From NCBI GenBank assembly GCA_963849325.1, contig CAWKHF010000010.1:288001-352000 (forward strand): DNA of 64,000 nt, read 5' to 3'. Positions within the stretch are counted from its first letter, which is position 1. Each line of letters opens with the position of its first letter. This stretch comes from an uncultured Planctomycetota bacterium (GTDB lineage: Bacteria > Planctomycetota > Planctomycetia > Gemmatales > Gemmataceae). This document shows positions 7,338 to 29,096 of the stretch, piece after piece. The position numbers were made by a program, and so were the translations under genes. The notes under the pieces are model-generated. The model had not been told where the DNA came from and searched no databases. It saw only the letters and a list, made by a program, of their open reading frames with translations.

Positions 7338-7502
7338 GATCGTTTCCTCCGGTCCCCCTGTGCGCTCATTCGACGTGTGGGTCGGTCGGAGCGCCACTTC
7401 TGCTTACGATAATCCCGGCTCCCCATCGCACGCAAGAGAGCAACACCCCATTCGCCCCTTCGAGCGACGTAGTTCCCATCGCTGTCACCCGACCGACGGC
7501 GA

Positions 7503-9296
7503 CTAGCGTAGCATATCCGTCAGCGCTCCGGGCGACCTTACGCCGTCCGTAACGGCGTGGTACGTCGGCGCGTCGGCGGGCAGGAAGGGAGTGAACGGCG
7601 GCATCTCCTCGCGGCCTAGGCGAAGCTCAAGCACGCCCGGCCGGTTGGTCCAGGACGAGCTGTCTTCCAGGGCTTCGTTCAACTCCTCGATGGTGCCCGC
7701 CGAGCCTACCCAGAGGCGGTGAGGGGGACCGAACCCCCGGGCGACCTTGGCCACGGAAATGGGAGAATACCGCGAGCACTCGATCCTCCCCTCGAAGTAG
7801 AGCTGTTGCCGGGTGACACACATGCCGTGCATGCCGTTGTTGAAAACGACGAAGAGAATAGGCAGCTGATGATCGACGGCGGTATGCACCTCGGCGCCGA
7901 GCATCAGGAAGGCACCATCGCCGCAGAAGACCATTGTCCGCGAGCCGCGCGGGGAGCCTATCTGCGCGCCGATGGCCCCGGCGATGGCGTAGCCCATGCC
8001 CCCCATCCCCAGGGCGATCGTGGCGCTGACGTTCGCAGGGATGCGCAGGTAGTGCAGGGCGGCCGCGGCACAGTTGCCGGCGTCGAAGAGCACGTGGCCT
8101 TTCGCGGGCAGGAACGGCTGAAGCATCTCGAGAGCCTGACTCTGTCGCAGATCTCCGGTCATGGGGACCGAGTGCGAACGGCACCTGTCCAGGGGCAGGT
8201 CGGGGGCCAACTCGGGCGTGAAGCGGGTGACGGGCACCGGGACGGGCACTCGGGGAACCACGTAGGCCTGGTCCGCTAACTGATTGAGTTGGTCGAAGAC
8301 GACTCCCGCGTCCGCCTCGATGGACAACGAGGAGCGGACGATGCGGGACACCTCGCCCATGTCGATGTTCACGACGGCCAACCGCTCCGGATGAAGGGCC
8401 TTCTGGATCGGCTGAGCCGTCATCACATTCAGGCCGGTTCCGACCGCGACGATGAGGTCCGCCTGCTCCGCCAGGAACCGATGCGCCGACGGCTCGCCGG
8501 CCACGCCCACGGTTCCCAGGTACAGAGGGTCGTCGTTGGGGAACACCCCCTTACTGGCGAGGGTCGTCGCCGTCCGCACCCCCAGGCGGCGCGCGAACGC
8601 GACGACTGCGGCGGGATTGCTGCACCGGTCCACTCCACTCCCGAGCAGCAGCACGGGTGTCTCGGCCGTGCGGATGGCGTCGAACAGTTTGGCGACCGCA
8701 TCGGCCGGCGCGTACCACAGGCCGTTCAGCTCGTTCAGACGGTCGGGCATCCAGCTGGGTCGTGGGCCGACGTCGCTGTCGAACAGGTCGCGGGGGATCA
8801 GCAGCACGGAGGGACCGGGCCGACCACTCATCGCGGCCGTGACCGCGCAGTCCAGGCACCGCCAGAATTGGCCGGGCTCCGTGATTCGCGCCTGATACTT
8901 GGAGATGGCGGCCCAGAGCCTGTCCGCGTTCACGGATCGACCGATGCCGGAAGAATCTTGAAAGGCGCCTCGACCTTCGAGCCGAGTAGGCGGTTGGCCG
9001 ACGATGGCCAGCATCGGCACCGACTCCGCGAACGCCTCGGCGACGCCCACGGCCAGGTTCATCATCCCGCCACCGGATGTGCTGCAGCAGACCCCCAGAG
9101 TGCGATGCACCCGGGCTCGGCAGTCGGCCATGAAGGCAGCGCCCACTTCGGACTTGGCGCACACGGAGCGGAAGCCCTCGCCGCCCAGCCGATGCACGGC
9201 GTCGTGCAGGTGCTCGATATTGGCGCCGCTGACACCAAACAGGTATCCCAGACCCCAGTCGCGCAAGGTCGTAACCAGAGCTTCTGCCAGTTTCAT
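7503..9296 (-). CDS. Thiamine diphosphate-dependent enzyme (acetolactate-synthase-like acyloin synthase; NzsH/CqsB3/ScyA-type)
   Basis: FGVSGANIE, catalytic Glu in SEVGAAFMAD, STSGGG, ThDP motif GDGAFLM...NNG. Confidence 0.88.
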   Translation of the reverse strand: MKLAEALVTTLRDWGLGYLFGVSGANIEHLHDAVHRLGGEGFRSVCAKSEVGAAFMADCRARVHRTLGVCCSTSGGGMMNLAVGVAEAFAESVPMLAIVGQPPTRLEGRGAFQDSSGIGRSVNADRLWAAISKYQARITEPGQFWRCLDCAVTAAMSGRPGPSVLLIPRDLFDSDVGPRPSWMPDRLNELNGLWYAPADAVAKLFDAIRTAETPVLLLGSGVDRCSNPAAVVAFARRLGVRTATTLASKGVFPNDDPLYLGTVGVAGEPSAHRFLAEQADLIVAVGTGLNVMTAQPIQKALHPERLAVVNIDMGEVSRIVRSSLSIEADAGVVFDQLNQLADQAYVVPRVPVPVPVTRFTPELAPDLPLDRCRSHSVPMTGDLRQSQALEMLQPFLPAKGHVLFDAGNCAAAALHYLRIPANVSATIALGMGGMGYAIAGAIGAQIGSPRGSRTMVFCGDGAFLMLGAEVHTAVDHQLPILFVVFNNGMHGMCVTRQQLYFEGRIECSRYSPISVAKVARGFGPPHRLWVGSAGTIEELNEALEDSSSWTNRPGVLELRLGREEMPPFTPFLPADAPTYHAVTDGVRSPGALTDMLR

Positions 9297-9348
9297 GAGA
9301 GGGCCTTTCCATCGCTTGCCGAATGTGCCGTGTGTCTACTGCTTCCAA

Positions 9349-10350
9349 CTATGCCGGCTTCCAGTGGATGACAGCCGAGGCGGCGAAGTCTCCGGCGTGG
9401 GCAAATCCACCGAGCACGAGATGAGAGTTCGCCTTCAATTGCCCGCTGTCGATGGCCTCCTCGAGGCAGATCGGCAGGGCGGCGCCGAACAGGTTGCCGT
9501 GCCGCTCGAAGGTCGATACGTGTCTTTGCGTTGGCACCTGCAGCGCTTCGCGCCAGTTGCGCAGGAACAGGTTGTTGGGCTGGTTCGTGATGAGCGTGCC
9601 GATCTCACTGGGAGGAAGTTCGGCACGGCGGCAAGCCTCGCGGATGGCCTCCGGGACGATGCGGTTGGCACGGCTCATAATGTGGCACAGCTTCGCCTCG
9701 TTGAAATCCACGGAGGTACATGCCGTGCTCGGCTCCCACCATGCGGTGCCATCGGCACGGACGACAGCCATGTCGCCGGCATACTCGCAATAGTTCTGAT
9801 GCACGACCGCCTTGACCGGCGATTCCCCCGAGGCCACGAGATAGCCCACGCCACAGCCGTCGCCAGGGATGCGGGCCTGCTTGAGCTTGCGGGTCTGTTC
9901 ACTGCCGAACAGACGGCCGGCCGAATTCTGGACGTTGCACAACAGGGCCGTCTTCGCCCCGTGGCAGCTCATCAGCGCCTGGGCCTGGGCGATCATGTAG
10001 ACGAACGAGACGCATCCTCCATTGTGGATGTCGAGGATCCAGCTAGGGCGAATCCCCAGCGCCTTGGCGGCGTCGGCCCCGCAGCCGGTGAACGGCTGGT
10101 CCGGGGAGGTGACGTTGGTCATGAGGATATCAACGTCCTTGTGCAAGTTGAGGTTCAGGCGAGCCGCCAATTTGCGGGCGGCATGGACGATCATCACACT
10201 CGCCGTTTCATCGCGGGAAACGTGATGCCGCTGTTTCACGCCGCGAAACATGAGGGGCGCTCGCTCCGAATCGCTGTTCTGAAAGAAGGAGTTCTCGACG
10301 ATTCGTCGCGGCAGGTAACTGGCCGCGCCAACCAGGCTTACGGTCTTCAT
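9349..10350 (-). CDS. 3-oxoacyl-ACP synthase III (FabH-like; NzsJ/CqsB1-type)
   Basis: Starts MKTVSLVGAASYLPRRIVEN with ATGA overlap to upstream gene; catalytic Cys in NGGCVSF; ITNQPN (Asn replaces the usual His); HGNLFGA; GGFAHAG. Confidence 0.88.
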   Translation of the reverse strand: MKTVSLVGAASYLPRRIVENSFFQNSDSERAPLMFRGVKQRHHVSRDETASVMIVHAARKLAARLNLNLHKDVDILMTNVTSPDQPFTGCGADAAKALGIRPSWILDIHNGGCVSFVYMIAQAQALMSCHGAKTALLCNVQNSAGRLFGSEQTRKLKQARIPGDGCGVGYLVASGESPVKAVVHQNYCEYAGDMAVVRADGTAWWEPSTACTSVDFNEAKLCHIMSRANRIVPEAIREACRRAELPPSEIGTLITNQPNNLFLRNWREALQVPTQRHVSTFERHGNLFGAALPICLEEAIDSGQLKANSHLVLGGFAHAGDFAASAVIHWKPA

Positions 10351-10988
10351 GGCCGACCTCCCATGGTCATGGGCAGCCCGTTGGCATGGCGGTACTCGAG
10401 AATGTGCTTGAGGTTGTCTAGCTCGATCTTGTGGCCCGCGTAGAAGAACGGCCACATGTCCCCCACCCAGACCTTGCGGCCCTTGGGCGACCTGTCCGGG
10501 AACGGGTTGTTGTCGTAGTAGGGGTGCCGGCAGTTGGTCCAGAGCACGACACAGCCGGGCCGGTTGAGCACCAGCTTCGCGGGCACGACGCGCATCAGGT
10601 AGATCATCCACAGTTCGTCGCCCTGGTCCCAGGCGCAGTGGTAATCCACCGTCATCGCCTCGGGGTTGGCGACCACCCGTGTGTAGATCTTCGTGGCGCC
10701 GCCGATGCGGTCGGTGGCAACGACCATCCCGGTTTCGTCCATCGGCGTGAAATCGCGCAGGCTGTACGTCCACTCCTGCAGCGTGTACACATCGGCCAGG
10801 TACTCAAACGCCTTCTCGGGCGGGCAATCGACGTAATCCTGCAGCGAGCAATACTGGCCGTAAACCTCGTCGTGCGGGTAAACGGCGTGCGTCATTTCCA
10901 TCGTCAGATCGGTCATTTCATCCTTGCAGCAGTTCTCGATGCGACGTACGCCGGGTAGGCGGTCGATGGCAGCCGAAATGAGATTCAT
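10347..10988 (-). CDS. SRPBCC/START-fold cyclase, carbazole-synthase (NzsI/CqsB2)-like
   Basis: AAGGAG RBS, 213 aa; DCPPEKAFEYLAD, EWTYSLR, TVDYHCAWDQG, LWMIYLMRV, VVLWTNCRHPYY, GHKIELDNLK; translationally coupled to KAS III. Confidence 0.75.
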   Translation of the reverse strand: MNLISAAIDRLPGVRRIENCCKDEMTDLTMEMTHAVYPHDEVYGQYCSLQDYVDCPPEKAFEYLADVYTLQEWTYSLRDFTPMDETGMVVATDRIGGATKIYTRVVANPEAMTVDYHCAWDQGDELWMIYLMRVVPAKLVLNRPGCVVLWTNCRHPYYDNNPFPDRSPKGRKVWVGDMWPFFYAGHKIELDNLKHILEYRHANGLPMTMGGRP

Positions 10989-11098
10989 CGCGTGTACTCC
11001 TTGTTCGTAACTCGAGCAGTGAAATGGCAGACTTGAGGTCGAAGCGTGATGCCTTGCTAAAGTCTTATATTGCGTCCAATCGAAACTGTGACGGCTTG

Positions 11099-11246
11099 AG
11101 AGTCTGTTCCCGAAGCTCCCCTCTCCCCTGTACTCAGGGGAGAGGGGTTGGGGGTGAGGGGTGAGAAACCCACGAAAAACCCGCCCCCTCACCCCAACCC
11201 CTCTCCCCCGGAGTACCGGGGGAGAGGGGCTTTCGGAACAGACTCT
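11099..11246. repeat. Composite REP-like inverted repeat (CCCCTCTCCCC-GTAC-GGGGAGAGGGG family) in divergent intergenic region
   Basis: Outer arms AGAGTCTGTTCC...GGAACAGACTCT enclose two CCCCTCTCCCC/GGGGAGAGGGG hairpins. Confidence 0.85.
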
Positions 11247-11410
11247 GATATCTCCGATCACCCCACGTAGGACTTCATCAGGCGCGGCCTCATCAAGCGT
11301 GCGCGGCGCCGGGATTGTTCCTGGCGGGCCTGTCACAAGTGATCGCGCGGGGGCTACCAGAGGGTGAAGAACATTCTCGTCATTGCGGATTTCAGACGGC
11401 GGATTGCAGA

Positions 11411-12592
11411 ATGAAGAAGCTACTCCCTGAGCATCTGCTGTCCCGGAAATCCGCCAGGCTCAAGCTGCCCTACTCGCTAACCACTGTCTGGCGACAACAG
11501 CTGCGCTATCTTCCGGCGGTGTTCGCCGTCGCCTTCAGTGCGGTCCTCAGCACCCTGCAGTGCGGACTTCTGGTGGGCATCCTCAACATCGCGGCCCGGC
11601 CGATCCACCGCAGCGATGCCCACGTCTGGCTGGCTTCTCCCGGCGTGCGTGGCCTGGGGTTTGGCCGTCCCATCCCTCTGGCCTGGAAGACCCGCCTGCT
11701 GTCGCAGCCGGAGGTAGAGCGAGTGGAAGAGTACCTGTGCGGCTTTGCCCAGTTCCAGAGGCCCGACGGCAGCACCGACCAGTGCAGCGTCGTCGGCATG
11801 AGGCTGGAGGCGGGCTCCCTGGGAGCGCTGGCGGACCTTACGCCGGAGATGCGCCAGAGCCTGACGCGGCCGGGCACGGCCGTGGTGTACGAGTCGGAAC
11901 TGCCGCTCCTGGGACTGCGGGATACGCCGGGAGAGGTCGGAGAGGTGGAGGGCCACCGTGTGGAGATTGTCGGCACCCTTCGGGGAGGCGACGGGGCAGG
12001 GTTGACTCCCGGGCTGTACTGTTCGCTGCGAACCGCTCGTGGGCTGTTGGCCTCGGTGTCGGGGCGACAGACGACTTACCTGTTGGCCCGGTGCCATGCT
12101 CCCGAACAAGGCCCTCTCCTGGCCCGAAAGCTGGAGGCGAGCTATCGAGACATGGACGCGATGACGAGCGGAGAGCTGGCCTGGCGAACCCAGTGTTACT
12201 GGCTGATCAAGACCCGGGCAGGGCTCGTCCTCGGCTTCGCCGCGGCGCTGGGCCTGATGGTCGGCGCGGTGGTCACTTCGCAGACGCTCTACGGGGCGAG
12301 CGTGGCCTCGCTCCGCGAGTACGCGGTCCTTCTCGCCCTGGGCATCCCACGTTGGCGGCTGCGGCGGCTGGTGCTCGGCCAGTCCTTCTGGGTCACTCTG
12401 GCCGGGCTCACGCTGGCCCTGCCGCTGACCGTGATCCTGGCCCACATCGCCCGCCCGATGAACGTGGAAGTGCTCCTACCGCCCTGGCTCGTGGCCGCGG
12501 TCGGAGGCCTTACGCTGGCGGTCGGCCTGCTGTCGGGGACCACCGCCCTGCGCTCGCTCCGCCAGGCTGATCCCGCCACGTTGCTGCGTTAA
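11411..12592 (+). CDS. ABC exporter permease (FtsX/DevC-like), copy 1
   Basis: RYLPAVFAVAFSAVL, periplasmic domain, SQTLYGA...REYAVLLALG, three C-terminal TM helices, DPATLLR; start uncertain. Confidence 0.85.
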   Translation: MKKLLPEHLLSRKSARLKLPYSLTTVWRQQLRYLPAVFAVAFSAVLSTLQCGLLVGILNIAARPIHRSDAHVWLASPGVRGLGFGRPIPLAWKTRLLSQPEVERVEEYLCGFAQFQRPDGSTDQCSVVGMRLEAGSLGALADLTPEMRQSLTRPGTAVVYESELPLLGLRDTPGEVGEVEGHRVEIVGTLRGGDGAGLTPGLYCSLRTARGLLASVSGRQTTYLLARCHAPEQGPLLARKLEASYRDMDAMTSGELAWRTQCYWLIKTRAGLVLGFAAALGLMVGAVVTSQTLYGASVASLREYAVLLALGIPRWRLRRLVLGQSFWVTLAGLTLALPLTVILAHIARPMNVEVLLPPWLVAAVGGLTLAVGLLSGTTALRSLRQADPATLLR

Positions 12593-12607
12593 AGAGGAAA
12601 AAGGACC

Positions 12608-13324
12608 GTGAAGACACTAATCGCCCGTAACCTGACGCGCAGCTTCGGCAGCGGCGACACCCGCGTGGTCGCCCTGGACGATGTCTCTCTGGAGCTGCGC
12701 CCTGGGGAGTTCTCGCTGCTCATGGGGCCGTCGGGGTCGGGCAAGTCCACTCTCCTGGCCGTGCTCTCCGGGTTGGTGCCGCCCGACAGTGGCCAGGTCG
12801 TCGCCCTGGGCCAGAAGGTGTGGGCCCTGTCACCTCTCCAACGAGAGGAATTCCGCCGCCAATCGACCGGATTTATCTTTCAGGGCTACAACCTGTTCCC
12901 CGCCTTGACCGTCCGCGAGCAACTGGAGATGGTTTTGCTCTGGGCAGTCGGGGTGCCGCCCGACGAGGCCGAGCACAAGGTGGAGGCCATGCTGGACCTC
13001 CTGGGCCTGGCCGAGAAAGCCGACTGCCTCCCCGAGCAATTGTCCGGCGGCGAGAAGCAACGAGTGGCCATCGCCCGCGCCCTGATCAAGGATCCCCAAC
13101 TCCTCTTCGCCGACGAACCCACCAGCGCCCTCGACTGGCAGCGCGGCCGGCAGATCGTCGAGCTGTTGCAGGCCAGCGCCCGCGAGCGGGGGGCAGTCCT
13201 GGTCGTGGTCTCCCACGACAACCGGCTCCTCCCCTATGCCGACCGCGTGCTCCACCTCGAGGACGGCTGCCTCGATCGGCCGGAAGCGCCGGCTGGACCC
13301 GAACCCCACAAGAGGAGTCCATGA
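12608..13324 (+). CDS. ABC exporter ATP-binding protein (LolD/DevA-like), copy 1
   Basis: GPSGSGKS, LSGGEKQRVAIARAL, FADEPTSALD, VSHD. Confidence 0.93.
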   Translation: MKTLIARNLTRSFGSGDTRVVALDDVSLELRPGEFSLLMGPSGSGKSTLLAVLSGLVPPDSGQVVALGQKVWALSPLQREEFRRQSTGFIFQGYNLFPALTVREQLEMVLLWAVGVPPDEAEHKVEAMLDLLGLAEKADCLPEQLSGGEKQRVAIARALIKDPQLLFADEPTSALDWQRGRQIVELLQASARERGAVLVVVSHDNRLLPYADRVLHLEDGCLDRPEAPAGPEPHKRSP

Positions 13325-14373
13325 AAGTCTTCCGTCCCCGCACGTTGGTTTGGCTGCTGGCCGTGGCCGTGGTGCTGGTCGGCCTGAGCGGCGCCGCCGG
13401 CGTTTTCCGCCTGCCGCTGGCCCTGTTCGGCTGCAGGCAGCCGGATTCGGAACGGCCCGGCCTGCAAGGCGTGGAGTGCCTTGGCCGGGTCGATGTCGAG
13501 GGCGGCCTGCTCGAACTCGCTCCTGTCCGCTCGGGTCGTGTCGTGGCAGTGAGCGTCCACGAGGGAGAGGCGGTGCCTGCAGGGGCGGTGTTGCTGCGAC
13601 TGGATGAGCAGCCGGCCCAACTGCTCGTTCAGCAGGCCCGCGCGGCCCAGCAGGTGGCCGAGACCCAGGTCGCTCTTGCTGAGGAGGCGGCCAGGCTGCA
13701 CACCTTCCGGGTGGCCGGCCAGGAGGCGCTTGCCCGGGCGGCTCGGAATCGCGTGCCGGCCGCCCGCGAGCAGATGGAGCGTAAGGAACGACTCTTCGAC
13801 CAGGGACTGATCGACAAGGAGGAGAAGGCCGCCGCCCGGCAAGAGGTGAAAACGCTGGAGTCCCTGGCGGAAGCTGAGGAGAAGCGGGTGGAGGGCTTGC
13901 GCGGCGAGAACCCTTGTTTGCGCGTTCAGCAGGCCAGGGCGGAGCTGGCGCGGGCGGAGGCGCTGCTGGCGGAGGCGCGGTACGCTCTGGACCAGTGCGT
14001 GGTGAAAGCGCCCGTGGCAGGCAGTGTGCTCCGGCTGCGCTGCAGCGCCGGCGAGGTCATCTCACCGCAGCTGGCCGTAATCGTGTTCGCCCCGGCGCGG
14101 CCTCGTATCGTCCGTGTCGAGGTGGAGCAGGAGCTGATCCATCGGGTCGAGGTCAGTCAGCCCGCCGTGGTGAGGGACGAAATGCACCCGGAACGATCCT
14201 GGAACGGCCGGGTCGTCCGGATGAGCGACTGGTACTCCGACAATCCCACCATCCCCCGCCGGATGGCAAGGTTCACGGACATCCCGACGGTGCAGTGCGA
14301 GATCGCGCTGGACCCCGGACACCCGCCATTGCGCATCGGCCAGCGGATGACGGTGCTTCTTGGCGGCCCGTGA
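13321..14373 (+). CDS. HlyD/DevB-like membrane fusion protein, copy 1
   Basis: ATGA overlap with ATPase; N-terminal TM, GRVVAVSVHEGEAVPAGAVLLRLD lipoyl half-motif, coiled coil, KAPVAGSV, LRIGQRMTV. Confidence 0.88.
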   Translation: MKVFRPRTLVWLLAVAVVLVGLSGAAGVFRLPLALFGCRQPDSERPGLQGVECLGRVDVEGGLLELAPVRSGRVVAVSVHEGEAVPAGAVLLRLDEQPAQLLVQQARAAQQVAETQVALAEEAARLHTFRVAGQEALARAARNRVPAAREQMERKERLFDQGLIDKEEKAAARQEVKTLESLAEAEEKRVEGLRGENPCLRVQQARAELARAEALLAEARYALDQCVVKAPVAGSVLRLRCSAGEVISPQLAVIVFAPARPRIVRVEVEQELIHRVEVSQPAVVRDEMHPERSWNGRVVRMSDWYSDNPTIPRRMARFTDIPTVQCEIALDPGHPPLRIGQRMTVLLGGP

Positions 14374-14755
14374 CCCAGCCGTGACTGCAGCAACGGGTCG
14401 TGGGACTCGTGCTGGTCGGGCATAGCTCGCTGCAGCGCATCGAAGGTCTTCCGCCTTCGCTCGCATGGGCTGCGGCAACCCGGCTGGGCATCCGTCTCCA
14501 AATCGCATCCGGTCTGTCTTCTCTTGACCACATCGGTGAGGACGAACCCGCCGTTCTCCGTATGGTCGCCTCGTTCTCCCTCTCGATTTGCGAAGCGATT
14601 GTCACAGCTCCCCGTTCAGGTCGAAGAAGAGATGGAGCGGAAACGCTTCCTCCCCTGATAACCACACGCTTGGGAGATGGGCATGGCGCCGGCCTCCAGC
14701 CGCGCCGGGTCCGTGCATCGTCTTGCTTCTTGGATTCTGAACAACGGAAGGTCCC

Positions 14756-17503
14756 ATGAGCCACATGCTACTGAGTGTCCCGAGTCCACTGCTGTCCTCC
14801 GCAACGAGCGGATCGCCGGCGCCGGCCCCCTCCGCGGAACGAGAGCCGCGCCGTCAGGGGCAGACCGAGGGACATCCATACGCGCGCTGCGTCAACCCCT
14901 ACCTGGCCGACCTGCTGAATAAGCTGTGGCTGGACAAGCGGTTCGTGAGCGGCGAGGGCTGTGAGCTAATCGACGACACGGGCCGGCGCTACCTCGACGC
15001 CGTGGCAGCCTACGGGGCACTGCCCTTCGGCTTCAATCCTCCCGAGATCTGGCGCAGCTTGCTGGAGGTGCAGCGGAGCGGCGAGCCGAGCTTCGTGCAG
15101 CCCTCGTTGCTGGATGCGGCCGGCGAGCTGGCCGAACGCTTGCTGGCCGTGGCGCCGGCGAACCTCCGCTACGTGACGTTCGCCAACAGCGGCGCCGAAG
15201 CGGTCGAGGCCGCCGTCAAGATGTGCCGGGTCGCCACCGGGCGGCTGGGCATCCTGGCCACGAATGGCAGCTTCCACGGCAAGACCCTGGGGGCGCTGTC
15301 CGCGACCGGCAACGCCCATTACCAGGACGGCTTCGGCGCTCCGGCCGGCGATTTCCGCCACATCCCCTTCGGCGATGCGGCCGCGCTGCGCCGCGAGCTG
15401 GAGGCCCATCCGGGCTACTATGCCGCCTTCCTGGTCGAACCGATCCAGGGCGAGGGCGGCGTGATCGTGCCGCCGCCGGGCTATCTCGTCGAGGTGCGCG
15501 ACATCTGCACCCGCGCGGGCGTTCTCCTGGTGCTGGACGAGATTCAGACCGGGCTGGGACGAACCGGCGCCCTGTTCGCCTGCGAGGCCGAGGACGTTCA
15601 GCCGGATGTCCTGACGCTCGCCAAGGCCCTGGGCGGCGGACTGCTCCCGATCGGGGCCGTCCTCAGCAGCGAAAAAGCCTACTCCGAGACGTTCGCCCTC
15701 AAGCATTCCTCGACGTTCGCGGCCAACGCCCTGGCCTGCCGAGCCGGGCTGGCCGCCCTCGACCTGCTGACGCGCGACGACGGCGCCCTGGTGCGGCGCG
15801 TGGCTCGCAACGGCGCCCGTCTCCAGGAAGGCTTGCTGGCCTTGCAACGGCGCTTTCCGCAGTTGATCGCCGAGGTGCGCGGCCGGGGCTTCTTGCTCGG
15901 CCTCCGCTTCACCACCGATCGTGCTCTCTGGCCGGAGGGTCTGCTGGGCGTGGCGCTCGAACAGGAGTTCTTTACGCCCGTGTTCGCCAGCTACATGCTC
16001 AACGTGGAAGCGGTTCGCGTCGCCCCGACCCTCAACGGCAAGGCGGTCCTCCGCATCGAACCGGCGTTGACGATGTCCTGGCCGCAGTGCCAGCGGTTGC
16101 TGTCCGCGCTGGAGCGGGCGCTGACCGTGTTCGCGGCCGGAGACACGGGGCGGATTCTGGCATCGATCCTGGAAGGTCGGCCCTGCCCGCCGGCGCGGTC
16201 GATGCCGCTGCCGAAGCCGTGGCTTGAGGTCAAGCTCCGTCCAGCCGAACGCCGCTTCGCCTTCCTGATGCACCCCCTCGACTATGCCAACGCCGTCGAT
16301 TTCGATCCGTCGCTGGCCTACCTCGATGCGTCCTCTCTGGAGACGGTGGTGCGCAAGGTCGCTTCGTTCGTGGAGCCGTTCGTGGTCAGCCACGGGCGTG
16401 TGGTGTCGGCGACCGGCGAGACGATCTACGGCGAGTTCATCACCCTGCCGCGCACCGCCGAGGAGCTGACGCGGATGCGTCGCAAGGAGGCGATCGAGTA
16501 CGTCCGAGGGGCGCTGCACCTGGCGCGAGACCGCGGCGCTCAGCTCGTCGGGCTGGGGGCGTTCACCTCCGTGGTGACGCTCGGCGGCCGAGCGGTGGCG
16601 GAAGAGGGAGTGCCGATCACCACCGGCAATTCGTACACGTCGGTCGCGTCCGCCGAGGCCATCCGCAAGGCCCTGGCGCTGGTGGGTCGCGGGGAGAAGA
16701 CGCCTCCTACAGCGGCCATCATCGGAGCGACCGGCGCCATCGGCCGTACCCTGGCCCTGCTGCTCGCCGAGGACGTGGGCCGGCTCATTTTGGTGGGCAA
16801 CCCGGACTCCTCCGCCAAGTACGTCCGCGAGCGCTTGCTGGCGACGGCCGGCGATGTCGTCCGCTTTGTCAGCGCCCGGCACGCCGAGGGTTCGACCTTC
16901 CGGCCGGGCACCTTCGCCGCCCAGTTGCTCGCTCATCTGCCCGGTGGCGTGGTCGAGCAAGCCGCGATCGACGAGGTCGTCAGCCGGCTGGAACAGACCG
17001 GCTGGTTGGCGATCACGCAGGAGACGGCCGCCGCCGTGCGCCAGGCTCGGGTGGTGGTCACGGCGACCAGCGCCACCGGCACCGTCGTGCGGCCGGAAGA
17101 CCTGCGCCGGCGGGCGGTGGTTTGCGATGTCTCGCGGCCGGCCAACGTCGGCCAGGAGATCCTCGAAACGCGGCCCGACGTGCTGGTGATCGACGGCGGC
17201 GTCATCGCGGCGCCCGCCGGATCGGCCCTCAGCCAATTCGGACTGGGCGACGGCCTGATCTACGGCTGCATGGCGGAAACGATGATGCTCACCCTGGCCG
17301 GGCACCTGCGCAACACCAGCCTCGGCACCGACCTGACGCCCGAGACGCTGCACCTGTTGCGGACGCTGGCCGACAAGCATGGCTTCCACGTCGCCAAGCT
17401 ACGCAGCTTCGGCCGGCCGCTGGAAGAAGCCGACTTTCACCGCTTCCGCTCGGCGGAGGCTTCCAACAGGAGTGACAACCGTCTGTCACGAGCGGCATCC
17501 TAA
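14756..17503 (+). CDS. Class III PLP aminotransferase fused to acyl-ACP (thioester) reductase-like domain (TamH-like)
   Basis: N-half: YLDAVAAYG, NSGAEAVE, FHGKT, EPIQGEGG, DEIQTGLGRTG, AKALGGG. C-half: FAFLMHP, LGAFTSVV, TTGNSYT, GATGAIG, DVSRP, IDGG, GCMAETM, as in cyanobacterial acyl-ACP reductase. Confidence 0.85.
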   Translation: MSHMLLSVPSPLLSSATSGSPAPAPSAEREPRRQGQTEGHPYARCVNPYLADLLNKLWLDKRFVSGEGCELIDDTGRRYLDAVAAYGALPFGFNPPEIWRSLLEVQRSGEPSFVQPSLLDAAGELAERLLAVAPANLRYVTFANSGAEAVEAAVKMCRVATGRLGILATNGSFHGKTLGALSATGNAHYQDGFGAPAGDFRHIPFGDAAALRRELEAHPGYYAAFLVEPIQGEGGVIVPPPGYLVEVRDICTRAGVLLVLDEIQTGLGRTGALFACEAEDVQPDVLTLAKALGGGLLPIGAVLSSEKAYSETFALKHSSTFAANALACRAGLAALDLLTRDDGALVRRVARNGARLQEGLLALQRRFPQLIAEVRGRGFLLGLRFTTDRALWPEGLLGVALEQEFFTPVFASYMLNVEAVRVAPTLNGKAVLRIEPALTMSWPQCQRLLSALERALTVFAAGDTGRILASILEGRPCPPARSMPLPKPWLEVKLRPAERRFAFLMHPLDYANAVDFDPSLAYLDASSLETVVRKVASFVEPFVVSHGRVVSATGETIYGEFITLPRTAEELTRMRRKEAIEYVRGALHLARDRGAQLVGLGAFTSVVTLGGRAVAEEGVPITTGNSYTSVASAEAIRKALALVGRGEKTPPTAAIIGATGAIGRTLALLLAEDVGRLILVGNPDSSAKYVRERLLATAGDVVRFVSARHAEGSTFRPGTFAAQLLAHLPGGVVEQAAIDEVVSRLEQTGWLAITQETAAAVRQARVVVTATSATGTVVRPEDLRRRAVVCDVSRPANVGQEILETRPDVLVIDGGVIAAPAGSALSQFGLGDGLIYGCMAETMMLTLAGHLRNTSLGTDLTPETLHLLRTLADKHGFHVAKLRSFGRPLEEADFHRFRSAEASNRSDNRLSRAAS

Positions 17504-17561
17504 TTGGTCGGATGTCGTGTCCTGGTCCCTGAATCCACTCGTAATTCCAAGGAGATAGTCA

Positions 17562-18755
17562 ATGACTCTGTCTTACCAGCTCTACGAAACGATCAATCAG
17601 ATCCCCCTGGACGACTGGCGCGAGGCATCCCAGGAGGATTCGCACGGCTTCATGGACCCGAACTTCTTGCTTGCCCTGGAGAAGGGATTGGAGGGCCAGG
17701 CGCGAATCTTTCACGTCCTGATCCGCGCGGAGGACGGCCGGCCCGCCGCCTGCGCCAGCCTGTCGCTCCTGCCGCTCGATCTTTTGCTGCTGGCGGGGCC
17801 GCGCCTTCAGAAGGCGTTCGGCTGGGTCCGCAAGCTGGCCCCCAACCTGGGGAAAGTAAACGTCCTCCTGTGTGGCCTGCCCTTTTCGGCGGGGCAGAGC
17901 CACCTGGCGTTCGCGCCGGGCGCCAACCGGGCACGGGCGGTGCTGCTGCTGGACACCCTGCTGCGGCAACTGGCCCGGAGCCACCGCGCTCGGCTGATCG
18001 TCTTCAAGGAATTCGGCGACGATGCCCGCGCGTACCTGGACCCGTTGCTCGAGCACGGCTATTGCCGTGCCGCCAGCCCCGCGTCGTACGTGATGCCGAA
18101 ATCGTTCGCCAGCCTGGCCGACTACTGTGCCGCCCTCAAGCGGCACTACCGTTACAACATCCGCAGTTCCCAGCAGAAGTTCGAGCGGGCCGGCTGCCGG
18201 GCCGTCCACCTGGAGGATCCCGACGAGATCCGCCGCGTGTACACGCCAGAAGTGCATCAGCTCTATGAAGCGGTCGTCGGCAAGTCCGACCTCAAGCTCG
18301 AAGTTCTGCCGCATGCTTTCTTTCACGAGTTGGTGAATCGGCTTCCAGGCCAGGTCGCGTTGACGGTGGTCTATCGCCAGGAGCGCGCGATCGCTATCGC
18401 CTGGGGCCTCTCGGCCGATCCCGAGTATCACGGCCTGTTTTGCGGGATCGACTACGAACACAACGCCGAGTGCGATCTCTATTTCAACGTCGTGTACCAG
18501 CATCTCGACTACGCTTTCCGGCGCGGCAGCCGGCTCATCACCCTGGGCCAGACCGCGGAAAGCTTCAAGACCCGCCTCGGCTGCGTGGGCAAGGCACGCC
18601 ACGTCTATGCTCGCGGGGCAGGCCCGCTCCTGTCCCGGGTGTTGCGGCGCAGCGCCGGCTTCCTCTTCCCCGATCGACCGATCGCGCCCGCGCACGACGT
18701 GTTCAAGGCGATCGAGCCGGCCCGTCCGCGCAAGCAGGCGCTGCCCGTCAGTTGA
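17562..18755 (+). CDS. FemAB-like double-GNAT acyl/aminoacyl transferase
   Basis: 397 aa; IVFKEF, FASLADYCAALKRHYRYNIR, GIDYEHN..DLYFN, ITLGQTAESFKTRLG. Confidence 0.75.
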   Translation: MTLSYQLYETINQIPLDDWREASQEDSHGFMDPNFLLALEKGLEGQARIFHVLIRAEDGRPAACASLSLLPLDLLLLAGPRLQKAFGWVRKLAPNLGKVNVLLCGLPFSAGQSHLAFAPGANRARAVLLLDTLLRQLARSHRARLIVFKEFGDDARAYLDPLLEHGYCRAASPASYVMPKSFASLADYCAALKRHYRYNIRSSQQKFERAGCRAVHLEDPDEIRRVYTPEVHQLYEAVVGKSDLKLEVLPHAFFHELVNRLPGQVALTVVYRQERAIAIAWGLSADPEYHGLFCGIDYEHNAECDLYFNVVYQHLDYAFRRGSRLITLGQTAESFKTRLGCVGKARHVYARGAGPLLSRVLRRSAGFLFPDRPIAPAHDVFKAIEPARPRKQALPVS

Positions 18756-18844
18756 TTTCGTTCGATTCGAGACGGTGAGTCGGAATACGAGCTATCCCCG
18801 AGCGTGTAGGTAAAGCCCCCCGGAGAAGGAAGCGAGTTGGACCT

Positions 18845-19963
18845 ATGGGTTATGCACTGACAATCCTGTGGCACGATCGACAGCGCTATCTGCCCGCCAT
18901 GCTGGCGGTGACGTTCAGCGCCCTGCTAGTGGCCCTGCAATTCGGCCTGCTCCTGGGGACGTTCTCGATGGTGTCGATCCCCATCGACCATACCAGCGCC
19001 GACGTCTGGGTGGGCCAACCCCAGGTCAGCAGCGTTGACATGAGCCTGTCCGTGCCCGAGCGCTGGCGCGACCGGATGGAAGGTCTGCCCGAGATCGTCC
19101 AGACGGAGCCTTACATCCAGTCGTTTATGAGCTGGTCCAAACCGCGCGGCGGCACGGAACACATCATCGTCATCGGCTCGCGGCTGCACGACGGCGCCCT
19201 CGGAGCGGTGACGGAGTTGACGCCGCAGCTGCGCCGGAAGCTGGTCGAACCGGGCGCGGTGGTGGTGGACCAGGCGGAATTCGGACGCCTGGGTTTGACC
19301 AAGGGGATTGGCGAAAGTGCCGAGGTCAATGGCCTGCGGGTACGGGTCGTCGGCGTGGTGCGCGGTCTCAAGGGGCTGGGAGGACCATACATCTTCTGTT
19401 CGCTGGAGACGGCCCGCCGTCTGGTGCGGATGGCGCCGGACGAGGTGACGTACCTGCTGGCCCGTTGTCGCAATCCGCAAGACGCCGGGCGGGTCGTGGC
19501 GCGGTTGCGCCGCTATCCGAACATGTCGGCGTTCACCAGCGCCGAATTCTCGTTCCGCTCGCGCTGGCACTGGCTGGTGATGAGCGGCGGCGGCATCGCG
19601 CTGGGCTGTGCCGCCCTGCTGGGCCTGCTGGTCGGGGCGGTGGTCACCAGCCAGACGCTGTACGCGGCGACGGCCGCCTCGTTCCGCGAATTCGCGGTGC
19701 TGCGAGCGCTGGGCGTGCCGCAGAGGCGCCTGGCCGGTACCATCCTGGCGCAGGCCTGCTGGCTGGGGGTCGCCGGCGTCCTGCTGGCCCTGCCGGTCGT
19801 CTACGCCCTCTCCAGCGTCGCCGGCTGCCTGGGCGCTCGCGTGTTCTTGCCGCCATGGGTGCTGGGTTCGTCCGCCGGTCTCACTCTGATTACGGCCCTG
19901 ATCGCCGGCCTAGCCGCTCTGCGCTCGCTACGCCACCTGCAACTGGCGACGCTATTGCGGTGA
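18845..19963 (+). CDS. ABC exporter permease (FtsX/DevC-like), copy 2
   Basis: Paralog of 11411-12592: RYLPAMLAVTFSALL, SADVWVG, SQTLYAAT...REFAVLRALG. Confidence 0.88.
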   Translation: MGYALTILWHDRQRYLPAMLAVTFSALLVALQFGLLLGTFSMVSIPIDHTSADVWVGQPQVSSVDMSLSVPERWRDRMEGLPEIVQTEPYIQSFMSWSKPRGGTEHIIVIGSRLHDGALGAVTELTPQLRRKLVEPGAVVVDQAEFGRLGLTKGIGESAEVNGLRVRVVGVVRGLKGLGGPYIFCSLETARRLVRMAPDEVTYLLARCRNPQDAGRVVARLRRYPNMSAFTSAEFSFRSRWHWLVMSGGGIALGCAALLGLLVGAVVTSQTLYAATAASFREFAVLRALGVPQRRLAGTILAQACWLGVAGVLLALPVVYALSSVAGCLGARVFLPPWVLGSSAGLTLITALIAGLAALRSLRHLQLATLLR

Positions 19964-20034
19964 AAGTCGTCACATTCTGATCTCCGCCAAGAATGAGATG
20001 ATGAATAGGGCCATTAAGAGGCACTAACCAAATA

Positions 20035-20100
20035 GGCGAGCGGGGGGCGTAAGCCCCCTGTTGACGGCGAAAAACAGGGGGCTTACGCCCCCCGCTCGCC
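20035..20100. repeat. REP-like palindrome (GGCGAGCGGGGGGCGTAAGCCCCCTG family)
   Basis: GGCGAGCGGGGGGCGTAAGCCCCCTGTT ... AACAGGGGGCTTACGCCCCCCGCTCGCC; same family at 57086-57168. Confidence 0.9.
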
Positions 20101-20131
20101 AAAAAGTTACAGCTTCTAAGGAGATAGTGAG

Positions 20132-20874
20132 ATGTTTCCGGAAAAGCCAACTCTGAGAGCTTGCAACCTGGTCCGCACGTTCGAGCAGAACGACATCGTA
20201 ACGACCGTCTTGCGGGACGTGTCGATGGCGCTGCATCGCGGCGAGCTGTCCCTGCTCATGGGGCCTTCGGGCAGCGGCAAATCGACGTTGCTCGCCGTGC
20301 TCTCCGGGTTGCTCCGTCCGACGGCCGGGCAAGTGCTGGCCCTGGGACAGGATTACTGGAGTCGAAGCGCCATCGAGCAGGAGCGATTCCGGCAGGGGCA
20401 TTTCAGCTACATCTTCCAGGGTTACAATCTGCTGCCGGCCTTGACGGCGCGGCAGCAACTGGAGCTGGTGTTGCGCTGGGCGGAGGGAACGACCGTGCGC
20501 GCGAGGCTCGGCGGCGAACCGAGCGGATGCTGGGGATGCTGGGGCTTAGTGGCAAGGCGCATCTGCGGCCGGCCCAGCTCTCCGGCGGCGAAAAACAGCG
20601 GGTGGCCATCGGCCGTGCCCTGGTCATGGAACCGGATTTCTGCTTCGCGGACGAGCCAACCAGCGCCCTGGACTGGACGCATGGCGAGGAAGTCATTCGG
20701 CTGCTGCAAGAAGCCGCCCGCCAGCGCGGCACCACCGTCCTGGTGGTCAGCCATGACGCACGCCTCCTGCCATATGCGGATCGGTCGTTCCACCTGGAAG
20801 ACGGTCGCTTGCACGAGGAGCGTGTGCTCCAGACAACGAGTGCGGAAGAAGAACTGGTTGCGGCGAGCATCTGA
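20132..20874 (+). CDS. ABC exporter ATP-binding protein, copy 2 (frameshift near 20500)
   Basis: GPSGSGKS in ORF 20132; LSGGEKQRVAIGRAL and FADEPTSALD in the overlapping ORF ending 20874. Confidence 0.85.
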
Positions 20875-20904
20875 ACGGGGTGAGAAATCCCCCTGGAGGT
20901 CCTC

Positions 20905-21963
20905 ATGGCGAAAACAAGGCGATTGGGCTGGGTGCGTTGGCTGCTGGGCGGGATCGTGTTCACGGCCGGCATGGCCGGCGCGGGAGCGAACTTCCCGAAG
21001 TCCAGCGCCGTCAGCGCGCCGGCGGACGCGAGTCCTGTCGCGGAGCCGGTGGCTTGCTCCGGCCACGTGGATGTCAAGCACGGAGTCGTCTCGCTCTCGC
21101 CGAGTCCGTCCGGCCGAGTGGCCGAGGTGCTGGCCGAGGAGAACGAAACCGTCAAGGCCGGCGCCTTGTTGCTGCGCCTGGATGATACCGTGGCCCGGCT
21201 GCGCATCCAAGAAGTCGAGGCGGACCTGGCGGCGTCTCGACTTCAGCTGGCCCAGGCCCGCAAACGGCCTGAGCAACACCAGGCCCGGCTCGCCCAGGTG
21301 CAGGCCGGCATCGAGGCGGCGCAGAACCGCCTGGCCGCGGCCCGGCACGAACGCGATCGGAAGACAGACTTGCTCGCCAAGGACTTGCTCCCGGAGGCGG
21401 AACTCAACATCGCCGGCGATCAGGTGAAGGAGGCGGAAGCGCTGCTGCGGGCGGAAAGGGAGAAACAGGCCGAGCTGCAGCTGCACGATCCCGCCGCCGA
21501 CATCCGCCGGGCGGAGGTGAACGTCCGGGCCAGCGAGGCCCGGCTGCAACAGGCCCAGGAAGCTCTCAAGGAATGTAGTCTGCGGGCGCCCTCCGACGGC
21601 AAGGTACTCCGCGTCCTCGTGGGGCCGGGCGAGATGCTCGGGGCACAAGCGAAGCAGCCCGCGCTGCTCTTCTGCCCGGACGGGGCGCGCTTCATCCGGG
21701 CCGAGGTGGAACAGGAGTTCGCCCACCGGGTCCGGGTCGGCGATCCGGCGACCATCCGCGATGAAAGTGATGACCCGTGCGTCTGGCGGGGTCGTGTGAG
21801 CCTGATGTCCGACTGGTTCACGCAACGACGCTCGGTCCTGCAAGAGCCGCTCCAACTGAATGATGTCCGTACCCTGGAATGCCGGATCATCCTGGAGCCG
21901 GGTCAACCGCCGTTGCGGATTGGCCAGCGCGTCCGGGTGCTGATCGGCACGAACCCTTCCTGA
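20905..21963 (+). CDS. HlyD/DevB-like membrane fusion protein, copy 2
   Basis: GRVAEVLAEENETVKAGALLLRLD, LRAPSDGKV, LRIGQRVRV. Confidence 0.9.
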   Translation: MAKTRRLGWVRWLLGGIVFTAGMAGAGANFPKSSAVSAPADASPVAEPVACSGHVDVKHGVVSLSPSPSGRVAEVLAEENETVKAGALLLRLDDTVARLRIQEVEADLAASRLQLAQARKRPEQHQARLAQVQAGIEAAQNRLAAARHERDRKTDLLAKDLLPEAELNIAGDQVKEAEALLRAEREKQAELQLHDPAADIRRAEVNVRASEARLQQAQEALKECSLRAPSDGKVLRVLVGPGEMLGAQAKQPALLFCPDGARFIRAEVEQEFAHRVRVGDPATIRDESDDPCVWRGRVSLMSDWFTQRRSVLQEPLQLNDVRTLECRIILEPGQPPLRIGQRVRVLIGTNPS

Positions 21964-21988
21964 CAAGGATTGGCAAAGCGAGGACCGA

Positions 21989-22832
21989 ATGATTTCGCCT
22001 TCTTACTACAACTGGCGGACCGAAGAGCGGCCCGCGCCCTGGTCTGGATCGTGCTGCCGAGCGAACCTCTCCTGCCAAGAGCGGCATCGGGGTCCGCGTC
22101 TTCCTCGATGTCCCCTACCGGGTTAACGCGGGAGAGCGGCACAAGCTGGATTTGTACCTGCCCAACCAGCGGGAGTTTCCGGTAGTCGTCTTCGCACACG
22201 GCGGAGCCTGGGTTTCGGGCGACAAGGCACTGCACGGCCACCTGGGTTGTTTCCTGGCGAAGCACGGCATCGGCGCCGTGCTGGTGAATTACCGGCTGGC
22301 GCCGCAGGTGCGTCATCCCGTCCCGACGCAGGATCTGGGCCGGGCCTTCGCCTGGACGCACCGCCACATCCGCCGCCTACGGCGGCGATGCCGATCGGCT
22401 CTACCTGTGCGGCCACTCCGCGGGCGGACACAGCGCCGCGCTCTTGGGAACGGATGAATCGTTCCTGGCCGACGAGGGACTTGGCTTCGAGCACGTCCAG
22501 GGCGTGATCGCCATTAGCGGCGTTTACAAGATCCACTGGAACGTCACCCTGGCCCGTCTAGGCTTCGTCTTCCGCAACAGCGATAAGACGGCCGCCTCGC
22601 CGCTCTGGAACATCCAGGCGGGGTGTCCGCCCTTCCTGGTCCTGCCGCCGGCAAGGAGCTTTGGACGCTCTCCAGCCAGGCGTTCGCGTTTCACAAGACG
22701 CTTCTGCGGCACAAGTGCCGGTCGCGCTTGCTGGTGGCCCATGGGGAGGATCACAGCTCGATCATCCAGACCGTCTCTTCGCCCTCGGCCAGCCACGGAG
22801 AGGCGATGGTGAAGTTTATCCGGGGAGGATGA
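21989..22832 (+). CDS. HSL-family alpha/beta hydrolase (esterase), several frameshifts
   Basis: Pieces in different frames: KLDLYLP, HGGAWVSGDK, NYRLAP, GHSAGG nucleophile motif, ISGVY, ASPL, GEDHSSII. Confidence 0.75.
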
Positions 22833-23531
22833 ACGCGGTCGGTTTGGGCACTGCTATGTAACCACGTCTTGCAGCACCTTTCCTTGTCGAGAAGGCTTGT
22901 CCCTCCTCATTCATGATGCCGATGATCGTGTCGCATTTATCCGATAGGGGGACTTTGCCCATAAACCAGATTCAATTAGAGGTTTATGGGCAAAGCGGTG
23001 CGGTAGATGGAGGAGGGAATTGGAGAGAGAAACGAGAAGTGCGGCTGGCGGAAAATCAGCAAGGGGGTCAAATGGTCTCAACGGCTCAGGCTTTTGGGCG
23101 ATAGGCGAGGGCGAAGCGGGCAATGGGCAATTCAGGCGATGGGCGACGGGCGATTGCTGAGCCTTGGAGACCTTTTGACCCTCCTGTTTGCCGATGCCCC
23201 TCTGGACGCGAGGCTCTCTTCTCGTTCCGACGAGGGGCGAGAGACGGCGTGGACGACCGCCGTACAAAGCACCCCGGGCGAGTCTCGGGTGCGAACCAGC
23301 CAAGAAAAGGGCTGGCTTCTTAACTCGATGTCACGCTTTCGCGTGTCTCGCTTCGTGCCAATCTATGATAGCATTTGGAGTGCCAAAACGTCTCTTTTCC
23401 GGATCTTTTCTGCAAAGTCAATGAAAAAGAGCACTTGAGGCGAGAGGCCCATTTCGACGACAAACGGAAGGGTCGGAAAAAGCGCCGGATTTTTCGTACA
23501 ACTGTCGTATTATCCGACAGTTCGCAGAGCC

Positions 23532-23590
23532 TCCGAGCCTGAAGCGTAAGTGAAGGAAGACCAAAACTTCGCTTACGCTTCAGGCTCGGA
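23532..23590. repeat. REP-like hairpin (GAGCCTGAAGCGTAAG family), possible terminator of DUF3500 gene
   Basis: TCCGAGCCTGAAGCGTAAGTGAAG ... CTTCGCTTACGCTTCAGGCTCGGA, 6 bp beyond the stop at 23597. Confidence 0.8.
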
Positions 23591-23596
23591 TGAAAC

Positions 23597-24631: not shown

Positions 24632-24658
24632 CTCCCCCCCTTGGTCAGATCCATAATT

Positions 24659-24747
24659 AACCACGGATAACACGGATGAACACGGATAAATACAAAAAAG
24701 TTGACTTCTTTGATTATTATCCGTGCTCATCCGTGTTATCCGTGGTT
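24659..24747. repeat. Inverted repeat built of CACGGAT units
   Basis: AACCACGGATAACACGGATGAACACGGAT ... ATCCGTGCTCATCCGTGTTATCCGTGGTT, directly after the dehydratase stop. Confidence 0.8.
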
Positions 24748-27510: not shown

Positions 27511-28953
<1,443 letters not shown>

Positions 28954-29096
28954 GGTGTTAGTTCCTCGGCGGACCCTGGTCGCGGCAGGTGCGAAAGCAG
29001 GAGATGAAGTGTAGTATGACAGCGTTCGCGCCCTGTTGCCAGGTAATCTCGACGTCGATGTGCGGTGCTCGTTTTCCCGTGCGGTGAGGGACCATC

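Follow-up and report, generated by a model that had tools for sequence, protein, structure and literature searches.

The region analysed is a 64,000-nucleotide stretch of a contig from an uncultured planctomycete of the family Gemmataceae (G000:C10:288001-352000; genome G000, 8.16 Mb in 14 contigs, 84.7% complete), hereafter called the window. In it, three genes resembling those that form the carbazole core in Streptomyces diverge from an export pump, and this pump is followed on the same strand by a transaminase/thioester-reductase (TA-TR) fusion, a FemAB-like double-GNAT transferase, a second pump and an esterase. The arrangement raises the question of whether the locus encodes one hybrid alkaloid/lipid-amine pathway, as put forward in the original prediction made from the sequence, or separate pathways lying side by side. 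Open reading frame (ORF) listing and Pfam/NCBIfam scans of the window recovered every gene that the prediction had named. The Pfam hits of the genes called in the window include no polyketide synthase or nonribosomal peptide synthetase in either of the modules defined below, as the prediction had also observed.

The border between the two modules

The co-occurrence of the two arms was analysed from both sides. An alignment of the trio's cyclase was scanned against one genome per species (185,579 species), giving 534 pattern matches, 501 of them encoding a relative; the best 80 of these 501 loci were taken with 10-kb flanks and probed by tblastn with all proteins of the cluster. At E ≤ 1e-8, none of the 80 gave a hit to the TA-TR or the GNAT up to 10 kb on either side of the trio. 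The reverse scan, carried out with a GNAT alignment against metagenome contigs, yielded 85 relatives, of which 80 were kept, and no trio gene was found near the GNAT in any of them. A GNAT homologue was also found nowhere in any of the 11 other genomes with the closest trios, namely the same-family genome G416 and ten more. G416 possesses the trio and gave no match to the TR domain or to the GNAT; two of the ten further genomes showed distant TR-domain matches, at 32% identity in a 473-residue frame and at 37% in an 870-residue frame on another contig. The same-genus genome G409 (97% complete) carries the whole right arm, with TA-TR (91% identical) and GNAT (86%) side by side, and gave no match to the cyclase.

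The ends of the homologous blocks fall at the same place. By blastn, contig C273 of G409 (L132, 7641-16021) corresponds to window 14460-22857 with 87.0% identity over 8450 columns, and the match stops there. The 7.6 kb upstream on C273 are unrelated and encode DinB, an Fe-S/SCP2 protein, an SDR and a DUF417 protein, and the right flank of the window maps to other G409 contigs. L013, a contig from a metagenome-assembled genome (MAG) which shows the same divergent layout of trio and DevCAB pump, aligned to window 7566-10980, 11506-13288 and 13473-14354 and no further; beyond that point only weaker paralogous matches were seen, of its pump to the second pump of the window. As the L013 homology ends at 14354 and the G409 homology starts at 14460, the locus was divided into module A (7503-14373) and module B (14460-22857), the left border of the latter being formed by an upstream region conserved with G409 (14460-14755, plus strand). 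Judged by these alignments, the right-hand operon is two units, with the homology breaking between 14373 and 14460.

Since the two modules are found apart in other genomes, they are probably neighbours in G000 and not parts of one hybrid pathway. We consider it likely that two independent gene modules abut at 14373-14460 and that each works separately. The co-occurrence test, which the original prediction had itself named as able to refute it, went on its genomic side against the hybrid pathway, which is left unsupported because the arms are independent modules that lie next to each other in G000. This separation gives reason not to pursue a hybrid product, for which the comparison of genomes offers no support, and the trio, set apart from its neighbour, provides a minimal target of 3.5 kb (7503-10988) for heterologous expression.

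The trio of module A and its relatives

The trio is read from the minus strand in the order cyclase, KASIII-like enzyme, thiamine diphosphate (ThDP)-dependent enzyme. The cyclase gene (10347-10988) encodes a protein of 213 residues with an SRPBCC fold, for which the Pfam match was weak (Polyketide_cyc2, E 0.0055) and which matched the carbazole synthase CqsB2 (PDB 6ipv) with an E-value of 6.4e-54 over residues 18-204 in a phmmer search against the PDB. The catalytic residues reported for CqsB2 are Glu105, Tyr144, Tyr172, His206 and Glu209 (PMC7466098). In the alignment to 6ipv, four of these five are identical in the window protein (Y130, Y158, H186 and E189 for Y144, Y172, H206 and E209) and E105 is conservatively replaced by D93; all five positions are invariant in alignment A1, made of relatives (15 sequences). 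The window cyclase is 59-66% identical to the cyclases of actinobacterial loci. Its stop overlaps the start of the gene coding for the NzsJ/CqsB1-type KASIII-like condensing enzyme (9349-10356, ACP_syn_III_C), which gave FabH-like NCBIfam matches under the cut-off and retains the active-site Cys. It contains the motifs HNGGC(V/A)SF, TNQPN and GNLFGAA, which are also present in the KASIII enzymes encoded next to CqsB2 homologues in loci of Streptomyces, Nocardia and Mycobacterium. The third gene (7503-9296), in the NzsH/CqsB3-type position, encodes a ThDP enzyme carrying all three TPP domains (TPP_enzyme_N/M/C); its best solved relative was 'BbmA' (8x3x, E 2.6e-60), and it is 57-73% identical to its Planctomycetota-type counterparts. 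The complete trio lies side by side in 78 of the 80 trio loci, the two exceptions being contigs of 3.4 and 3.9 kb; the KASIII-like gene adjoins the cyclase homologue in 79 and the ThDP enzyme is present in 78. By sequence, the left trio is a set of homologues of NzsH/NzsJ/NzsI (CqsB3/B1/B2), and the CqsB2 match, the KASIII motifs and the conserved adjacency are in agreement with the assignment made in the original prediction. Two other relations were rejected: to scytonemin ScyC, which scored 23.7 bits against a cut-off of 400, and to a PigD/PigE-type 2-methyl-3-amylpyrrole (MAP) pathway, the ThDP enzyme being tied to the trio in 78/80 loci and the TA-TR occurring in none of the 80.

Compared with the Streptomyces clusters for neocarazostatin (NzsH/J/I) and carquinostatin (CqsB3/B1/B2), the window holds the same three families, adjacent and with the catalytic Tyr/Tyr/His/Glu and the KASIII motifs kept. 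It differs in gene order, which is ThDP-cyclase-KASIII in Streptomyces, in its pairing with a MacB/DevCAB-type pump, in its planctomycete host and in its divergent ThDP enzyme. Matches to a Trp aminotransferase, an acyl carrier protein (ACP), a second KASIII, a prenyltransferase or a P450 are lacking from the window, and the Pfam hits of its genes likewise include no other aromatic aminotransferase. The order of the window was observed in 26 loci, from MAGs labelled Planctomycetota, Myxococcota and Proteobacteria, and the Streptomyces order in 52, mostly from Streptomyces, Nocardia and Mycobacterium.

The kinship of the trio was determined on loci chosen from those of the 80 in which each of the three proteins was covered to 85% or more. 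After concatenation of the trio (32 rows, 1128 columns), the maximum-likelihood tree places the window in an 11-row clade (SH-aLRT 100) of which nine rows are labelled Planctomycetota, one Alcaligenaceae (L013) and one Acidobacteriota (L018). The sister of the window is L013, with a support of 93; Myxococcota and Proteobacteria rows stand outside the clade, and the actinobacteria form a separate one. The nesting of L013 (labelled uncultured Alcaligenaceae) and L018 in an otherwise Planctomycetota-labelled clade means either that these contigs are mis-binned or that the cassette has moved from one phylum to another. Of 400 other genomes sampled in the phylum none gave the cyclase, and of 40 relatives one did, G416. 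The G416 trio is 75-81% identical to that of the window and belongs to one operon with an outer-membrane factor, an HlyD protein, two FtsX permeases and an ABC ATPase.

Clusters homologous to NzsJ/I/H are described in section 4 of PMC7466098, with its ref. 36 as the source, for Sorangium cellulosum and Scytonema tolypothrichoides, with the same reactions predicted; going by that description alone, they resemble the window in carrying the trio outside actinomycetes. In the window's tree, its clade is apart from the Myxococcota rows. The earlier claim that no such pathway was known in Planctomycetota has to be qualified: nine Planctomycetota-labelled genome records with the trio are present among the best 80 loci, and no paper on the trio in this phylum or on planctomycete carbazole genes was found in the literature searched. 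To our knowledge, bacterial carbazole biosynthesis has been worked out in actinomycetes only. The passage of PMC11610953 in which Planctomycetota are mentioned concerns a methyltransferase network, not carbazole biosynthesis.

Flanks were surveyed with a crude gene caller based on third-codon-position G+C, which missed the KASIII and DevB1 genes. Eight Planctomycetota-type loci besides the window were annotated. In L012, L016, L019 and L021 the trio is followed by an MMPL transporter gene, and in L013, L014 and L022, as in the window, MacB/DevCAB-type pumps stand beside it, L022 having an outer-membrane factor as well. An O-methyltransferase follows the trio in L013 and L020, the latter also encoding a P450 in place of an exporter. 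In Myxococcota-type loci a P450 recurs in eight and a MarR regulator in five. The trio clade, formed by a tight Planctomycetota group with a Myxococcota sister group, is an uncharacterised one in which a stripped-down trio usually lies beside lipid-type exporters. Module A is a variant of the carbazole cassette, distinguished by its gene order, its divergent ThDP enzyme, its exporter pairing and its occurrence in a phylum for which no report was found.

In the window, the trio is separated by a divergent intergenic region (10989-11410, from the ORF layout), in which no sigma-70-like site was found, from three genes of the plus strand: DevC1, an FtsX/MacB-type permease (11411-12592, FtsX), DevA1, an ABC ATPase (12608-13324, ABC_tran), and DevB1, an HlyD-type membrane-fusion adaptor (13321-14373, HlyD_3 and HlyD_D23). 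The start of DevC1 was placed at the ATG at 11411, with a TTG at 11315 as the other candidate, and that of DevB1 at the ATG at 13321, behind the Shine-Dalgarno-like AAGAGGAG. These proteins are 75% (DevC1), 71% (DevA1) and 50% (DevB1) identical to those of the divergent pump of L013. Export of a lipophilic product, in keeping with the exported product of the original prediction, is plausible in view of the exporters found beside Planctomycetota-type trios. In a scan of 7000-23600 for promoters and terminators, which is uninformative for this phylum, no promoter-like site was detected and terminator-like sites were less numerous than in shuffled sequences.

The TamH-like fusion and its FemAB-like partner in module B

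All genes of module B are on the plus strand. Its DNA is 87% identical to that of G409, yet both flanks are non-syntenic between these two same-genus genomes, and the module behaves like a unit that was rearranged or transferred as a block.

The TA-TR fusion (14756-17503, 915 residues) matched Aminotran_3 over residues 65-456 (E 3e-83), with the pyridoxal-phosphate lysine K290 in the motif LAKALGGG. Its C-terminal half gave reductase matches, to the N-terminal domain of PigE (E 7e-32) and to the cyanobacterial acyl-ACP reductase 6jzq (E 4.5e-16), and contains a GxxGxxG motif at 657-663 (GATGAIG) and a GCMAE motif at 837, the Cys of which is the putative catalytic residue from its alignment to PigE only. 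The best solved match of the protein was PigE itself (4ppm, E 1.4e-111), and among NCBIfam models that of PigE also ranked first. Both PigE domains are present; compared with this prodigiosin MAP enzyme, however, their order is reversed, the transaminase being N-terminal, the score on the PigE model NF053554 is 545 bits for a cut-off of 850, and no PigD or PigB accompanies them. PigE, with the reductase first, is also reported to reduce a thioester (PMC8341465). The domain order of the window protein is that of TamH from the tambjamine YP1 pathway of Pseudoalteromonas tunicata, a transaminase followed by a thioester reductase and described as acting on acyl-ACP and aldehyde substrates (PMC9594044). 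The N-terminal class-III transaminase, the acyl-ACP-reductase-like C-terminal domain, GxxGxxG and the conserved Cys bear out the TamH-like nature of the fusion claimed at the outset. The window differs from the TamH system in having no TamA-type adenylation-ACP, AMP-binding, PP-binding or bipyrrole genes, and the conserved partner of the fusion is the FemAB-like double-GNAT. Module B is a variant of TamH-type chemistry, so far uncharacterised, in which the partner is FemAB-like.

The TA-TR family is large: of 7999 candidates that were scored, 517 proteins reached E ≤ 1e-10. Among the 120 matches listed, the closest relatives are labelled Gemmataceae (91% identity), others are labelled Singulisphaera, Aporhodopirellula, Symbiobacterium, Thermaerobacter, Archangium and Stigmatella, and in two (P0213 and P0216) PP-binding or AMP-binding domains are part of the fusion. 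A stand-alone reductase frame resembling acyl-ACP reductase (473 residues, 32% identical to the TR domain; G443:C24:107886-108335) was seen in the L014 genome, about 20 kb from the trio on one and the same contig.

The GNAT gene (17562-18755) encodes a predicted acyl- or aminoacyl-transferase matching Acetyltransf_6 and FemAB_like. A search of the PDB with the GNAT alignment as a profile returned nothing meaningful, and the AlphaFold model built from a 50-sequence alignment (mean pLDDT 92.6) showed a double-GNAT fold. The best Foldseek match was FemX (7z6a, E 6.6e-13, TM 0.52/0.60), followed by the tandem GNAT of the clavulanate pathway, the aminoacyl-tRNA-dependent synthases Sbb17 and Sba18, FemA and MprF. 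With the FemABX-type transferases (FemX, Orf11/Sbb17 of streptothricin-type antibiotics, MprF) the window protein shares its double-GNAT fold, with best E-values of 1e-10 to 7e-13, and differs in a sequence identity of 9-16% at TM 0.5-0.55. The residue K336 is invariant in the 50 sequences; it may correspond to the catalytic Lys305 reported for the second GNAT domain of FemX (PMC12945691), the equivalence of the two residues being putative. The same article reports that Orf11 aminoacylates the free amine of a metabolite. The donor used by the window GNAT may be an aminoacyl-tRNA, an option drawn from the ranking of the folds only, or alternatively an acyl-CoA.

The association of the two proteins was followed in the metagenome loci. 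Twenty-six loci extend for 2.8 kb or more to both sides of the GNAT, and 10 of them contain a TA/TR fusion, with one domain order or the other, at most 3.5 kb away from it; for the full set the count is 15 of 80, many of these being too short to show a neighbour. No further strongly recurring neighbour of the GNAT was detected in these loci, and pump and esterase accompany the pair in its closest relatives G409 and L135 only. Because the pair recurs and the pump and esterase are confined to these two, the conserved unit is the two-gene pair, and TA/TR with double-GNAT constitutes a recurrent, uncharacterised cassette of two genes. A second, paralogous pair, consisting of a reductase-first fusion and a GNAT 38-40% identical to that of the window, is found on C2 of G000, C57 of G409, C8 of G407 and C237 of G403. 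The G000 copy (G000:C2:962550-965689; L113, 10153-13801) has its PigE-order fusion in alternating frames, convergent with a FemAB-like GNAT 39% identical to that of the window; intact versions of this pair are present on G409 C57 and G407 C8.

The remaining genes of module B are the permease DevC2 (18845-19963, MacB_PCD and FtsX), the ABC ATPase DevA2 (20132-20874), the adaptor DevB2 (20905-21963, HlyD_3) and the alpha/beta-hydrolase esterase (about 21970-22832), which occupies several frames and was recognised by BD-FAE and Abhydrolase_3 on the piece 22152-22457. DevC2 and DevB2 are 95% and 89% identical to the G409 proteins. Each of the two exporters of the window consists of three genes, for permease, ATPase and adaptor in this order, and the two are paralogous: measured against the second pump as present in G409, identity is 42% for DevC1, 58% for DevA1 and 36% for DevB1. 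Both have the architecture of a MacB-type tripartite pump, with an FtsX/MacB permease, an ABC ATPase and an HlyD adaptor, as in DevBCA and MacAB exporters. They differ from the heterocyst-type DevBCA exporter in their scores, all under the cut-offs (DevA1, 225 bits for 295.8 on the DevA-family model; DevB1 and DevB2, 64 and 74 bits for 129; DevC1 and DevC2, 56.5 and 57.5 bits for 290), and no outer-membrane factor gene is present in the window.

The DevA2 frame is broken near 20497: in comparison with the intact 246-residue gene of G409 it has two extra bases at this position, and ABC_tran matched over the first ~115 residues, at profile positions 1-80 only. The esterase, in comparison with the intact 289-residue gene of G409, shows frame-changing differences at 22024, 22370 and 22646.

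Proposed chemistry and competing explanations

The substrates, products and export steps proposed here are those that we infer from the relatives of each enzyme. By analogy with the Streptomyces enzymes, module A would be a minimal NzsH/NzsJ/NzsI-type cassette, in which the KASIII-like enzyme would condense the product of the ThDP enzyme decarboxylatively with a 3-hydroxyacyl (or acyl) thioester. Fatty-acid synthesis is the probable source of the acyl donor, since neither an ACP nor a second KASIII is present in the window. CqsB1 and CqsB2 are reported to accept 3-hydroxymyristoyl-CoA and 3-hydroxybutyryl thioesters (PMC7466098, section 3.3); the use of the former makes a long donor derived from fatty-acid synthase a reasonable inference. 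The CqsB2-like protein would then form the third ring, giving a catechol or quinone of the carbazole type, and the divergent DevC1-A1-B1 pump of the MacB type would export the lipophilic product. In module B, the TamH-like fusion would reduce an acyl-ACP thioester to the aldehyde and transaminate it to a primary fatty amine. The double-GNAT would acylate this amine, with the amino acid of an aminoacyl-tRNA, as FemX, Orf11 and Sbb17 do, or with an acyl-CoA, so that the pair may be read, by analogy, as making a fatty amine and then acylating or aminoacylating its nitrogen. The product would be exported by DevC2-A2-B2, with the esterase in an accessory role.

Several observations weigh against this scheme of two separate modules. 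The trio loci considered were the best 80 of 501, and the adjacency in G000 could still carry functional meaning, including a co-regulation of the two modules. The ThDP enzyme is just 32-38% identical to those of actinobacterial loci, and neither 'BbmA' nor 'CsmA', another best solved relative, could be traced to a paper in the literature searched; given both points, an arylpyruvate is its putative substrate. A Trp aminotransferase, an ACP and a classical or second KASIII (NzsD/E/F) are absent from the Pfam hits of the window, the rest of G000 not having been searched. The GNAT resembles its best fold matches to a moderate degree (TM 0.5-0.55), and acyl-CoA users such as N-myristoyltransferase, which ranked lower, are among the matches. 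Finally, the ATPase and the esterase of module B are frame-broken in the G000 assembly, and the module may for this reason be not fully functional here.

The last point leads to the alternative that module B is decaying in G000, the frameshifts of ATPase and esterase being real and only TA-TR and GNAT, or nothing, still working. The four frame-changing differences are gathered in 20497-22646, the stretch from the TA-TR start to the DevC2 stop has no long out-of-frame stretch relative to G409, and the paralogous reductase-first fusion on C2 is in alternating frames too, all of which would suit decay. However, a gene outside the cluster, the Peptidase_M28 gene at 29088-32034 (plus strand), is also split, into two overlapping frames of 440 and 624 residues, where G409 has a single frame of 991 residues (L215); this split points to scattered indel errors or pseudogenes in the G000 assembly. 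With a completeness of 84.7% in merely 14 contigs, scattered assembly indels are a fair explanation of the broken frames, and decay of the module is a serious, if lesser, possibility.

It is unlikely, in our opinion, that module A makes a non-carbazole, the trio clade of Planctomycetota and Myxococcota using another arylpyruvate or 2-oxo acid and closing another ring. Such a shift would account for the distance of the ThDP partner from the actinobacterial enzymes, for the difference in gene order (26 loci against 52) and for the Asp which replaces Glu105 of CqsB2 throughout the clade, no member of which has a known product; but the other four catalytic residues are maintained, the cyclase is 59-66% identical to those of actinobacterial loci, the KASIII motifs are identical across clades, and the ring closure described in PMC7466098 depends on the electrons of indole C2-C3. 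The hybrid pathway, in which a carbazole- or acyloin-type core would be aminated or N-acylated by TA-TR and GNAT and then exported, is very improbable: the arms are adjacent (383 bp from the DevB1 stop to the TA-TR start), the right arm is all on one strand, the pumps are paralogous and PMC7466098 mentions aminated carbazoles needing transamination, but the arms were not found together outside G000 in the 80 trio loci, the 80 GNAT loci or the 11 trio genomes, the homology blocks of L013 and G409 end at the junction, and the TA-TR is of the TamH type, an enzyme of acyl-ACP and aldehyde substrates according to PMC9594044, not a ring transaminase.

With two independent modules as the preferred reading, the TA/TR and FemAB-like pair is a second small recurrent cassette besides the trio, and this pair may link TamH-type fatty-amine formation to tRNA- or CoA-dependent amide formation. 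A bolder proposal, to which we give little credence as a whole, is that both modules make exported lipids. The clade of module A, which has no ACP and no second KASIII of its own and lies beside MMPL or MacB-type lipid pumps, would produce long-chain alkyl carbazole quinones from the 3-hydroxyacyl-ACPs of fatty-acid synthesis, placed in or passed through the outer membrane, and the cassette of module B would independently produce aminoacylated fatty amines via aminoacyl-tRNA. If true, the former would be a redox-active lipid class new to Gram-negative environmental bacteria, and the latter would put tRNA-dependent chemistry to a new use, the acceptor being a simple lipid amine.

Other genes lie close to the locus. 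A GFO/IDH/MocA oxidoreductase gene (6027-7397), on the minus strand like the ThDP gene, follows the latter downstream at a distance of 105 bp. As it is outside the block conserved with L013 and none of the 80 loci gave a match to it up to 10 kb from the trio, it is probably no member of module A. The cluster is also flanked by genes encoding DUF3500 (23597-24730) and DUF1501 (27511-28953) proteins, both ordinary in planctomycete genomes, and the DUF1501 region gave many partial DNA matches spread over G409.

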